A stretch of DNA of 64,000 bases from Escherichia coli (GTDB lineage Bacteria > Pseudomonadota > Gammaproteobacteria > Enterobacterales > Enterobacteriaceae): assembly GCF_003334315.1 (NCBI RefSeq), contig NZ_QOWR01000006.1, one strand, 5' to 3'. The position numbers were made by a program. Positions 44,901-47,900 of this stretch are shown one piece after another (position 1 is the stretch's first letter; each line of letters begins with the position of its first letter).

Positions 44901-47900
44901 GCGGCGGTGGATTTGGTTTAGTTACCGCCTGTGCTGCCGGTGGGCTTGGCGCGGCAATGGTTCTGGAGGCGGAATAATGGAAATGGCATCAGCGTTTACT
45001 CTTAATGTTCGTCTGGACAACATTGCTATCATCACCATCGACGTACCGGATGAGAAAATGAATACCCTGAAGGCGGAATTTGCCTCGCAGGTGCGCGCCA
45101 TTATTAAGCAACTCCGTGAAAACAAAGAGTTGCGCGGCGTGGTGTTTATCTCCGCGAAACCGGACAATTTTATCGCCGGAGCAGACATCAACATGATCGG
45201 CAACTGCAAAACGGCGCAAGAAGCGGAAGCTCTGGCGCGGCAGGGCCAACAGTTGATGGCGGAGATTCATGCTTTGCCCATTCCGGTTATCGCGGCTATT
45301 CATGGCGCTTGCCTGGGTGGTGGGCTGGAGTTGGCGCTGGCGTGCCACGGTCGCGTTTGTACTGACGATCCTAAAACGGTGCTCGGTTTGCCTGAAGTAC
45401 AACTTGGATTGTTACCCGGTTCAGGCGGCACCCAGCGTTTACCGCGTCTGATAGGCGTCAGTACAGCATTAGAGATGATTCTCACCGGAAAACAACTTCG
45501 GGCGAAACAGGCATTAAAGCTGGGGCTGGTGGATGACGTTGTTCCGCACTCCATTTTGCTGGAAGCCGCTGTTGAGCTGGCGAAGAAGGATCGCCCATCT
45601 TCCCGCCCTCTACCTGTACGCGAGCGTATTCTGGCGGGGCCGTTAGGTCGTGCGCTGCTGTTCAAAATGGTCGGCAAGAAAACAGAACACAAAACTCAAG
45701 GCAATTATCCGGCGACAGAACGCATCCTGGAGGTTGTTGAAACGGGATTAGCGCAGGGCACCAGCAGCGGCTATGACGCTGAAGCTCGCGCCTTTGGCGA
45801 ACTGGCGATGACGCCGCAATCGCAGGCTCTGCGTAGTATCTTTTTTGCCAGTACGGACGTGAAGAAAGATCCCGGTAGTGATGCACCGCCTGCGCCATTA
45901 AACAGCGTGGGAATTTTAGGTGGTGGCTTGATGGGCGGCGGTATTGCTTATGTCACTGCTTGTAAAGCGGGGCTTCCGGTCAGAATTAAAGATATCAACC
46001 CGCAGGGCATAAATCATGCGCTGAAGTACAGTTGGGATCAGCTGGAGGGCAAAGTTCGCCGTCGTCATCTCAAAGCCAGCGAACGTGACAAACAGCTGGC
46101 ATTAATCTCCGGAACGACGGACTATCGCGGCTTTGCCCATCGCGATCTGATTATTGAAGCGGTGTTTGAAAATCTCGAATTAAAACAACAGATGGTGACG
46201 GAAGTGGAGCAAAATTGCGCCGCTCATACCATCTTTGCTTCGAATACGTCATCTCTACCGATTGGTGATATCGCCGCTCACGCCGCGCGACCTGAGCAAG
46301 TTATTGGCCTGCATTTCTTCAGTCCGGTGGAAAAAATGCCGCTGGTGGAGATTATTCCTCATGCGGGGACATCGGCGCAAACCATCGCTACCACAGTAAA
46401 ACTGGCGAAAAAACAGGGTAAAACGCCAATTGTCGTGCGTGACAAAGCCGGTTTTTACGTCAATCGCATCTTAGCGCCTTACATTAATGAAGCTATCCGC
46501 ATGTTGACCCAAGGTGAACGGGTAGAGCACATTGATGCCGCGCTAGTGAAATTTGGTTTTCCGGTAGGCCCAATCCAACTTTTGGATGAGGTAGGAATCG
46601 ACACCGGGACTAAAATTATTCCTGTACTGGAAGCCGCTTATGGAGAACGTTTTAGCGCGCCTGCAAATGTTGTTTCTTCAATTTTGAACGACGATCGCAA
46701 AGGCAGAAAAAATGGCCGGGGTTTCTATCTTTATGGTCAGAAAGGGCGTAAAAGCAAAAAACAGGTCGATCCCGCCATTTACCCGCTGATTGGCACACAA
46801 GGGCAGGGGCGAATCTCCGCACCGCAGGTTGCTGAACGGTGTGTGATGTTGATGCTGAATGAAGCAGTACGTTGTGTTGATGAGCAGGTTATCCGTAGCG
46901 TGCGTGACGGGGATATTGGCGCGGTATTTGGCATTGGTTTTCCGCCATTTCTCGGTGGACCGTTCCGCTATATCGATTCTCTCGGCGCGGGCGAAGTGGT
47001 TGCAATAATGCAACGACTTGCCACGCAGTATGGTTCCCGTTTTACCCCTTGCGAGCGTTTGGTCGAGATGGGCGCGCGTGGGGAAAGTTTTTGGAAAACA
47101 ACTGCAACTGACCTGCAATAAGAAGGTCAAAGCTATATGAATCCGCGCTGAATGGCGGAGTGTTGGTCAAAATGTAAACGCATATTGACTATACTTACGC
47201 CATTGAGGTAAAAAACAGCGTTTCATTCGGTGAATGGATAAGGCACAATGCCGGCCACCGTTTTCTTTCTCTGGTTTCAGATGAAAGAAAACGGGCGAAT
47301 CTGGTTAACAAAAGCGGTGCAATATGCAAGTTTTTATCATGCGTCACGGCGACGCAGCCCTCGATGCCGCCAGTGATTCCGTTCGTCCTCTGACCACTAA
47401 TGGTTGTGACGAATCTCGCCTGATGGCGAACTGGCTGAAAGGTCAAAAAGTGGAAATCGAACGCGTTCTGGTGAGCCCGTTCCTGCGAGCCGAGCAAACA
47501 CTGGAAGAAGTAGGGGATTGTCTGAACCTGCCTTCCAGTGCAGAAGTTCTGCCGGAGTTAACGCCCTGCGGCGATGTTGGTCTGGTCAGTGCCTATTTAC
47601 AGGCGTTGACCAATGAAGGTGTTGCTTCGGTACTGGTGATCTCTCACTTACCGTTAGTCGGGTATCTGGTTGCCGAGTTATGTCCGGGCGAAACGCCGCC
47701 TATGTTTACCACCTCGGCCATTGCCAGCGTAACGCTTGATGAAAGCGGAAACGGCACATTCAACTGGCAGATGAGCCCGTGTAATCTGAAGATGGCAAAA
47801 GCTATCTGATGAGTTCCAAATTATGCCCAATGAGGTAGATTCATTGGGCATAATTGCTCATCAGGCAGCGGATATCTGTCAACCTCACTACTATCGAAGA

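Follow-up and report, generated by a model that had tools for sequence, protein, structure and literature searches.

The palindrome after sixA in Escherichia coli: a terminator hairpin that has lost its U-tract and probably protects a Rho-terminated transcript

A perfect palindrome lies just beyond the sixA gene in the 64,000-nucleotide stretch of Escherichia coli DNA that we analysed (the window). Is it a site that a protein binds on the DNA, a transcription terminator, or an element of the RNA? An earlier note on this DNA left two options, a protein-binding site and an RNA processing or stability element. The evidence described below favours the second of these. The palindrome is probably the protective 3′ stem-loop of a sixA transcript that is terminated by Rho, in other words an RNA hairpin and not the DNA site of a protein. 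It may also terminate transcription weakly. This makes it an element of an ordinary, previously described kind. The features at the end of the gene are as follows.

47324-47809, plus strand: the sixA coding sequence (phosphohistidine phosphatase), from the ORF list and the RefSeq annotation of identical DNA.
47801-47813, plus strand: left outer arm, GCTATCTGATGAG, which spans the final two codons of sixA, its TGA stop and another TGA in frame.
47819-47855, plus strand: inner hairpin with perfect 15-bp arms (47819-47833 and 47841-47855) and the 7-nt spacer GGTAGAT, supported by sequence, folding and homologues with covariation.
47857-47869, plus strand: right outer arm, CTCATCAGGCAGC, in the position that a T-tract occupies in other alleles.

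The palindrome is an element in the 3′ UTR of the sixA transcript. The 13-mer that had first drawn attention is present as described, TTATGCCCAATGA at 47821-47833 and TCATTGGGCATAA at 47841-47853 on either side of GGTAGAT (47834-47840), and it begins 12 nt downstream of the sixA stop (TGA, 47807-47809). The palindrome is therefore real, but the length of its arms had been understated. The perfect arms are 15 nt long (AATTATGCCCAATGA and TCATTGGGCATAATT), with a conserved core of GCCC (47825-47828) and GGGC (47846-47849), and they are flanked by a further, outer inverted repeat. The inner stem has 15-16 bp, lies on the coding strand and starts 9-12 nt past the stop. In the outer repeat, GCTATCTGATGAG and CTCATCAGGCAGC form Watson-Crick pairs at 11 of 13 positions and one G-U pair, a match as good as this turned up just 12 times when 20000 random sequences took the place of the right flank (p about 6e-4). 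Together the outer and inner arms make up a 69-nt hairpin (47801-47869) that includes the sixA stop codon.

Among the perfect palindromes in the 64-kb window whose loop measures 3-12 nt, this one is the longest. Among 40 dinucleotide-preserving shuffles the maximum arms were mostly 9-10 nt, and reached 13 nt once. The inner hairpin has a predicted folding energy of -21.4 kcal/mol and the extended hairpin one of -39.2 kcal/mol, while a 96-nt context folds at -44.1 kcal/mol (z = -6.4 against shuffles). The extended helix is predicted to be about 26-29 bp long, with 26 consecutive pairs on the 3′ side, a 4-nt bulge, and three pairs more.

The surroundings of the hairpin change abruptly. GC content is 0.53 within sixA and 0.32 within 47810-48489, and the approximately 97% homology among E. 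coli lineages stops at 47805-47832, beyond which the intergenic DNA is unalignable. This agrees with the earlier suggestion that the palindrome marks the boundary between core sixA and an AT-rich fimbrial leader. The yfc genes on the far side are only 68-84% identical between E. coli lineages. The next of them, yfcV, is on the same strand, 680 nt away and behind its own promoter. Positions 47600-49527 of the window are identical to MG1655, and published MG1655 coordinates were mapped onto the window. Two open reading frames at the palindrome were considered and rejected: a small ORF of 57 aa (47823-47996), whose ATG start belongs to the left arm, has no upstream Shine-Dalgarno sequence and falls in a region that is unalignable between alleles, and its mirror on the opposite strand is an artefact of the palindrome.

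48078-48106, plus strand: the yfcV sigma-70 promoter, TTGAAA-17-TATAGT, found by a promoter scan and listed, with a note of H-NS, by Shimada et al. 2014 (PMC3946193).

Is the palindrome a member of a repeat family? Megablast and word-11 blastn searches of 5426 complete E. coli genomes found the hairpin in 3100 of them, once per genome in every carrier and never on a plasmid. The earlier note would have regarded multiple genomic copies as a sign of a generic repeat, and none were found. Within the window the 13-mer has only chance-level matches with two mismatches. A search of Rfam over 46500-49500, at E-values up to 10, gave only two chance-level eukaryotic matches. With a single copy per genome and no Rfam match, a dispersed repeat family (REP/BIME or other) is ruled out. 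In some loci of Citrobacter and Salmonella, REP elements are found downstream of sixA. The allele itself is very uniform: 3086 of the 3100 carriers are at least 99% identical over 47814-47860, and the outer arms are nearly invariant among them. Roughly 170 E. coli genomes have none of the alleles A (the K-12 type) to D.

The history of the hairpin becomes clear when it is compared with its relatives. Other lineages of E. coli and Escherichia have a homologous hairpin at the corresponding position, and its GCCC/GGGC core does not vary. In allele B (O157-like), allele C and E. albertii these hairpins are followed by TTTGTCTTTTTG, TATTTTTTTC and TTTCTGTTTTAC, respectively, with tail scores of 3.6-5.0 as against 2.06 here. 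The earlier note overlooked this homology to what, judged by sequence, are true hairpin-plus-T-tract terminators. The palindrome is the K-12-type allele of the sixA terminator hairpin, from which the U-tract has been lost.

Pairing has been conserved where sequence has not. RNAalifold recovers 11 pairs across the Escherichia alleles, and 5 of the 11 show compensatory double changes. Across alleles 92% of cells are paired, compared with at most 43% in slid-register controls, and the covariation score is 0.305 compared with 0.129 in shuffles, none of which (0/500) reached it. The loop or spacer varies between 4 and 12 nt and its sequence is unrelated between alleles. Arms whose sequence shifts while their pairing stays are the signature of a hairpin and not of a sequence-specific dimer site. 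At a greater distance, a hairpin of -12 kcal/mol or lower is found within 115 nt of the sixA stop in all 76 Enterobacteriaceae loci scored. We use this survey for hairpin presence alone, since the lowest-energy hairpin swallows the T-tract and makes tail scores unreliable. Many of these hairpins are without T-tracts, e.g. the GGCGGG...CCCGCC type in Enterobacter.

How was the U-tract lost? The K-12-type allele, found in 57% of complete E. coli genomes, has a right half that looks copied: in inverted orientation 47841-47869 repeats 47801-47833, the sixA stop codon included, with two substitutions and a 4-nt deletion, and each of the four differences from allele B in the arms has its exact mirror image. 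Quasi-palindrome correction, or template switching, is an established mutational mechanism in E. coli. A single templated inverted-copy event may account at once for the perfection of the 15-bp arms, for the outer helix and for the missing T-tract. The U-tract was thus probably lost through an inverted duplication of the left flank, as judged from one alignment.

What remains of the terminator? A stable, G+C-containing hairpin on the coding strand soon after the stop, one hallmark of an intrinsic terminator, is present, but the other hallmark, a U-rich tract of about 7-9 nt directly 3′ of the stem, is missing. The tail past the stem reads GCTCATCAGG, or ATAATTGCT if counted from GGGC. Its tail score is 0.4-2.1, compared with 3.6-5.0 in alleles B, C and F, and a consensus terminator scan has no match at the palindrome. 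This bears out the original description of the palindrome as something other than a canonical intrinsic terminator. The curated Term-seq 3′ ends of Adams et al. (three conditions) include none in MG1655 24562xx-24563xx; low sixA expression could account for this. Likewise, sixA is absent from the supplements of the TERMITe paper and of a paper that measured 72 Rho-dependent terminators, and literature that combines sixA with Term-seq, Hfq, RNase III or bicyclomycin yielded nothing relevant.

The sequence that follows the hairpin suggests a role for Rho.

47880-47939, plus strand: C-rich, G-poor tract, a candidate rut site, with 19 C and 2 G in 60 nt.
47938, plus strand: peak of the Rho termination region that Adams et al. 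2021 list at MG1655 2456198 (minus strand).

In the tract C exceeds G by 17, which places it at the 99.93th percentile among windows of 60 nt on this strand. The published, bicyclomycin-sensitive region is on this same strand, and its peak is about 83 nt past the hairpin, with a Rho score of 9.29 and p = 1.1e-41 (Adams et al. 2021, PMC7815308, Supplementary file 2), although its resolution is low, being based on 800-nt windows. The upstream and downstream reads reported there are 136 and 73 in untreated cells, and 148 and 738 with bicyclomycin. With the drug the downstream reads exceed the upstream ones, so much of the rise probably comes from intergenic starts, such as the yfcV promoter, and not from sixA read-through. 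Up-regulation of yfcV after bicyclomycin has been reported.

A class of RNA structure that combines these properties is known. Dar and Sorek 2018 (NAR, PMC6061677) described stable stem-loops without following U's, which guard the mRNAs that Rho terminates against PNPase and RNase II, and found C-over-G enrichment and rut sites directly downstream of them. The sixA hairpin is likewise a stable stem without a U-tract or an upstream A-tract, and it has C-over-G, rut-like sequence directly downstream. We therefore propose the following model. The hairpin would descend from an intrinsic terminator that follows sixA throughout Escherichia. Lacking a U-tract, it would release RNA polymerase poorly, and transcription would continue into the C-rich tract at 47880-47939, where Rho could load and terminate. 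PNPase and RNase II would next shorten the tail as far as the foot of the hairpin, and the sixA mRNA would be protected in this way. We infer from the combined evidence both that Rho acts on sixA transcripts in this region and that the steady-state 3′ end is at the hairpin.

The strongest competitor of this model is that the hairpin is still a weak but working Rho-independent terminator of sixA, in which a poor tail, AUAAUUGCU, is offset by the long stem, with release a few nucleotides past GGGC. This has some appeal, as the hairpin is homologous to the canonical terminators of other alleles and its stem is highly stable, with energies of -21 to -39 kcal/mol. The first 6 nt past GGGC are all A/U, and the A/U-rich end of the stem, AUAAUU, could sustain some intrinsic termination. 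Furthermore, the untreated read density downstream is about half of that upstream (73 and 136). We nevertheless consider the idea rather unlikely, given a tail score that does not exceed 2.06 where T-tract alleles reach 3.6-5.0, the silence of both the consensus scan and the Adams et al. list of Term-seq 3′ ends, and a strong C-over-G tract and bicyclomycin-sensitive region just downstream.

The hairpin might instead work mainly in the other direction. It could keep antisense transcripts that start in the yfcV leader, which is AT-rich and bound by H-NS, from running into sixA, and so serve as a one-sided or bidirectional insulator at the boundary between core and variable DNA.

47786-47800, minus strand: possible antisense terminator tail, UUUUGCCAUCUU, inside the last sixA codons; sequence only, tail score 3.25.

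On the minus strand the extended hairpin has an energy of -35.2 kcal/mol and is followed by this tail. A sigma-70-like site that matches at 11 of 12 positions (48144-48115) is directed toward sixA, and a Rho region of Adams et al. on that strand (MG1655 2455977, window 48159) indicates that antisense transcription exists. Allele B is truly bidirectional in its design, with an A-tract upstream and a T-tract downstream. However, the U-run of the K-12-type allele is just 4 nt long and lies within conserved sixA coding sequence (GCA AAA GCT), which is found in all alleles with or without the outer helix, and may be incidental. In addition, one natural variant (L088) disrupts an outer pair, and the Adams et al. 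list has no minus-strand 3′ end. All told, an antisense stop appears improbable.

Could the extended helix be a substrate for RNase III, with cleavage removing the protective hairpin and so controlling the decay of sixA mRNA? A terminating ribosome covers the stop codon, and the outer helix would then form only on untranslated mRNA. The predicted run of 26 pairs and three more is what makes this conceivable, and the outer arms are both non-random and nearly invariant in the 3100 carriers. On the other hand, the outer helix is absent from other alleles and hence is not a conserved requirement; it may be a mere by-product of the duplication. The literature on sixA with RNase III, Hfq or Term-seq is silent on the matter. 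We rate this as slightly less probable again than an antisense stop.

The protein-binding option of the earlier note, taken as a DNA operator at which a dimer regulates sixA or the yfc fimbrial operon, would fit the perfect dyad symmetry and a position just where the silenced fimbrial leader starts, but is very unlikely: instead of conserved half-sites at a fixed spacing among orthologous loci there are co-varying arms (5 of 11 pairs compensatory, 92% of cells paired) around a spacer that differs in length and sequence, the 15-bp arms exceed typical half-sites, the yfcV promoter is approximately 260 bp downstream, the absence of a second copy in any of the 5426 genomes leaves no regulon, one natural strain has an IS1 inserted inside the palindrome, and the sequence matches only unrelated eukaryotic primers in the literature.

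The proposed stem-loop of a Rho-terminated transcript raises a broader, more tentative possibility, namely that the alleles of one gene end use alternative modes of termination. Alleles B, C and E. albertii would rely on a hairpin and U-tract. In the K-12-type allele, which is in the majority, a single template-switch inverted duplication would have erased the U-tract and built a 28-bp helix in which the sixA stop codon is sequestered, and termination would have passed to Rho at the neighbouring C-rich tract. The extended helix might also tie mRNA stability to translation or RNase III, or shield sixA from antisense transcripts that leave the H-NS-silenced yfc locus. We regard this scenario as rather unlikely.

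What are these results useful for? Beyond annotation their importance is small: they define a 3′ element of sixA in K-12-type E. coli, and offer a testable model for sixA termination that leads from the hairpin to a rut-like tract and to Rho. They also provide a natural example of a terminator hairpin that was kept through compensatory change while its U-tract was lost, precisely where the conserved fadJ-sixA core gives way to the hypervariable fimbrial yfc locus. Strain engineers should note that the K-12 sixA-yfcV junction probably insulates transcription less than a canonical terminator would.

Finally, the hairpin can be placed among known systems. The REP/BIME palindromes are similar in that they are extragenic, follow genes and could block exonucleases, but the sixA palindrome is single-copy, has no resemblance to REP sequences and belongs to no Rfam family. 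Template switching matches the inverted right half and the mirrored arm differences from allele B, yet it explains the origin of the hairpin and not its function, and no intermediate allele was recovered. The closest relatives are the sixA terminators of the O157-like, C and E. albertii alleles, which share its position, core, ancestry and covariation; the K-12-type hairpin differs from them in its missing T-tract and low tail score, and in an additional outer helix, which involves the region of the stop codon. In its probable function it most resembles the stem-loops of Dar and Sorek. The steady-state 3′ end at the stem base by which that class is defined is not on the Adams et al. list for sixA, but the stable stem after a gene, the absence of a U-tract and A-tract, the C-over-G sequence downstream and the bicyclomycin-sensitive region nearby are all shared. 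Compared with that class, the sixA stem is unusually long and perfect, at 15 bp, or 28 bp when extended.

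The perfect palindrome that the earlier note placed directly after sixA is present with exactly the sequence stated, but its perfect arms are 15 nt long, not 13 (47819-47833 and 47841-47855, spacer 7 nt). Around these lies an outer inverted repeat (47801-47813 / 47857-47869) with 11 of 13 Watson-Crick pairs and one G-U pair, and together the two repeats form a 69-nt hairpin that takes in the sixA stop codon. The predicted folding energy is -21.4 kcal/mol for the inner hairpin and -39.2 kcal/mol for the extended one, with folding z-scores of -6.4 (plus strand) and -5.2 (minus strand) in a 96-nt context. 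This is the longest perfect short-loop palindrome of the whole window, and arms of more than 10 nt are rare in shuffled windows. Given the inner arms, the outer arms are non-random (chance p ~6e-4). The setting, with genes from the ORF list and the RefSeq annotation of identical DNA, is as follows:

44977-47121, plus strand: fadJ
47324-47809, plus strand: sixA
48078-48106, plus strand: yfcV promoter, TTGAAA-17-TATAGT
48490-49053, plus strand: yfcV
49135-51780, plus strand: yfcU, usher gene

The hairpin is found at the same spot in every Escherichia lineage compared, with an invariant GCCC...GGGC core, while the sequence that follows the stem differs between alleles.

Alleles of the post-sixA hairpin. 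Genome counts are out of 5426; sequences are what comes after GGGC; the tail score measures the U-tract following the stem (3.6-5.0 in canonical terminator alleles).
Allele A; the window, K-12-type; 3100 genomes; ATAATTGCTC; tail score 2.06
Allele B; O157-like, also Escherichia sp. E1V33; 429 genomes; ATTTGTCTTTTTG; tail score 3.70
Allele C; E. coli, Ecol_545-type; 501 genomes; CTTTATTTTTTTC; tail score 4.97
Allele D; APEC O1 type; 1226 genomes; AGTTTCTCC; tail score 2.93
Allele E; a single E. coli genome (L008); CTTATAAATTGCG; tail score 2.35
Allele F; E. albertii; ATTTCTGTTTTAC; tail score 3.59

For 8 distinct alleles RNAalifold gives a consensus stem of 11 pairs, with compensatory double changes at 5. 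Over the alleles 92% of cells are paired, compared with at most 43% in slid registers, and the covariation score is 0.305 vs 0.129 in shuffles (0/500 reach 0.305). We conclude that selection maintains this hairpin as a structure at the sixA transcript's end, and that it is a homologue of intrinsic terminators whose U-tract is absent in this allele. Beyond Escherichia the post-sixA hairpins are non-homologous, yet one is present at 76/76 loci, be it a canonical terminator, a REP element or a U-less GGCGGG/CCCGCC stem. At sixA loci of Citrobacter, Salmonella, Kluyvera and Pseudocitrobacter (L014, L015, L019, L081 and L083; 1987-2100), REP-like elements with GCCGGATAAGGCG / GCCTGATGGCGC motifs replace the dedicated terminator hairpin.

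Multiple copies marking a generic repeat would have counted against the earlier note's reading. The genome search found one copy per genome in 3100/5426 complete E. coli genomes (megablast and word-11 blastn agree), which rules out a dispersed repeat; these searches found none on plasmids. In 3086 of the 3100 carriers the hairpin is at least 99% identical. Within the window the 13-mer has no further copies save chance-level matches with 2 mismatches, and no Rfam family matches the hairpin.

How did the symmetry become perfect? Reverse-complemented, 47841-47869 reads GCTGCCTGATGAG----CAATTATGCCCAATGA, against GCTATCTGATGAGTTCCAAATTATGCCCAATGA for the left side (47801-47833). The arms differ from allele B in four places, each with its exact mirror image in the opposite arm, and the complementarity extends into the coding end of sixA, which is ancestral. 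From these sequences we infer that one template-switch or inverted-duplication event may have replaced the former right arm and T-tract by a copy of the left flank. A single copying event would account for the perfect arms, the outer helix and the loss of the U-tract together; no intermediate allele was among those recovered.

The 3′ end of sixA is matched in 5422/5426 genomes, the DNA beyond it in only 3094 of those. Homology of ~97% between lineages stops at 47805 or 47832 and GC falls from 0.53 to 0.32 at the junction, which bears out the proposal that the palindrome marks the boundary between core sixA and an AT-rich fimbrial leader. The intergenic region past sixA is unalignable between lineages, and yfcV and yfcU share 84% or ~68% identity with the window (47810-49400 vs three other sixA loci, L002, L003 and L004), against ~97% for fadJ-sixA. 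The hairpin therefore lies where a conserved core meets the hypervariable yfc fimbrial locus. Within E. coli this locus has deeply diverged alleles, and the sixA stop codon marks a sharp boundary of recombination or diversification.

The window and MG1655 are distinct, differing at 48 colinear SNPs across 8 kb. Over 47600-49527 there is no difference, so published MG1655 data are valid for the hairpin and the intergenic region (MG1655 = 2504136 minus window position). The fimbrial usher gene yfcU is an intact ORF of 881 codons in the window and an annotated pseudogene in MG1655, with an internal stop at codon 579; SNP 50871 is C in the window and G in MG1655. These differences indicate a non-K-12 strain bearing a K-12-type sixA-yfc allele.

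Just 3′ of the hairpin, C outnumbers G by 19 to 2 in 47880-47939 (99.93th percentile among 60-nt windows of the same strand), an excess exceeding that in alleles that keep the T-tract. Rho-terminated E. coli mRNAs have their 3′ ends at stable stem-loops without U-tracts, with a rut sequence rich in C over G just 3′, PNPase and RNase II trimming back to the stem (Dar and Sorek 2018, PMC6061677). For this strand a region of Rho termination is listed at MG1655 2456198 (window 47938), 83 nt beyond the hairpin, with a Rho score of 9.29 (p = 1.1e-41) and upstream/downstream reads of 136/73 untreated and 148/738 with bicyclomycin (Adams et al. 2021, PMC7815308). As the downstream gain exceeds the upstream signal, transcripts that start inside the intergenic region, such as at the yfcV promoter, must contribute. 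Elsewhere, yfcV is named as one of the fimbrial genes whose expression rises following bicyclomycin. The curated Term-seq list records no 3′ end over several hundred nt 3′ of sixA (Adams et al. 2021). The C-rich tract, the known stem-loop class and the Rho region together best fit a model in which the hairpin would be a protective 3′ stem-loop of sixA mRNA, perhaps also a leaky terminator, and Rho would complete termination at the C-rich tract.

The hairpin may instead be a weak intrinsic terminator. A less likely rival is termination in the antisense direction: read on the minus strand, the extended hairpin has UUUUGCCAUCUU behind it (tail score 3.25), and a strong promoter-like site at 48144-48115 faces it. 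However, this U-run is sixA coding sequence, common to alleles without the outer helix. The site (48115-48144, minus strand) is a near-consensus sigma-70-like TTGGCA-18-TATAAT with 11/12 matches, directed to sixA and away from yfcV. With a minus-strand Rho region at MG1655 2455977 (window ~48159, score 3.9; Adams et al. 2021), it suggests that the H-NS-bound leader is transcribed in an antisense or divergent direction. The length of the extended helix is the one hint that the hairpin might be an RNase III substrate. A protein operator, one of the two options in the earlier note, is contradicted by arm covariation, spacers that vary between alleles, the single copy per genome and an IS1 that has inserted naturally within the palindrome of strain EC09. 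In that one natural isolate (L095, NZ_CM169492.1, 2501-3300) IS1A sits inside the right arm, so the hairpin is dispensable, at least in EC09.

Other hairpins occur in the window. The fadJ-sixA spacer holds a second U-less hairpin at 47258-47294, with perfect 12-bp arms CCGTTTTCTTTC / GAAAGAAAACGG (-28 kcal/mol and z = -4.4 in the 71-nt context 47240-47310). Abundant Term-seq 3′ ends lie 21 and 117 nt before the sixA start (MG1655 2456833 and 2456929, window 47303 and 47207; Adams et al. 2021), the former 9 nt past this stem; the 3′ end of fadJ, or an attenuator within the leader of sixA, may lie here. Perfect palindromes at 20640-20676, just 3′ of an ORF ending at 20585, and 37318-37350 lack T-tails on both strands (tail scores at most 0.4), one with 14-bp arms TTTTATGACCACAA/TTGTGGTCATAAAA and the other with 12-bp arms CGTTGCTCCATG/CATGGAGCAACG; each may be another U-less 3′ stem-loop or a binding site. 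Three perfect palindromes with A-tract and T-tract arms serve as internal comparators: 39895-39926 (AAAAAAGGTGAGT...ACTCACCTTTTTT) and 63827-63852 (AAAAGGGAACC...GGTTCCCTTTT) have the scores of canonical intrinsic terminators that work in both directions (tail 3.4-4.6 on both strands), and 17315-17340 scores lower (2.4 and 1.7).

The sixA hairpin is thus real, under selection and terminator-derived, a 3′ stem-loop of an ordinary kind that appears not to have been described individually before. What is new is modest: the K-12-type allele's apparent origin by templated copying and what looks like a within-species polymorphism of termination design. It resembles the stem-loops of Dar and Sorek in its stable U-less stem and adjoining C-over-G tract. 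With the intrinsic terminators of other Escherichia alleles it shares a homologous hairpin, but allele A is without their U-tract.
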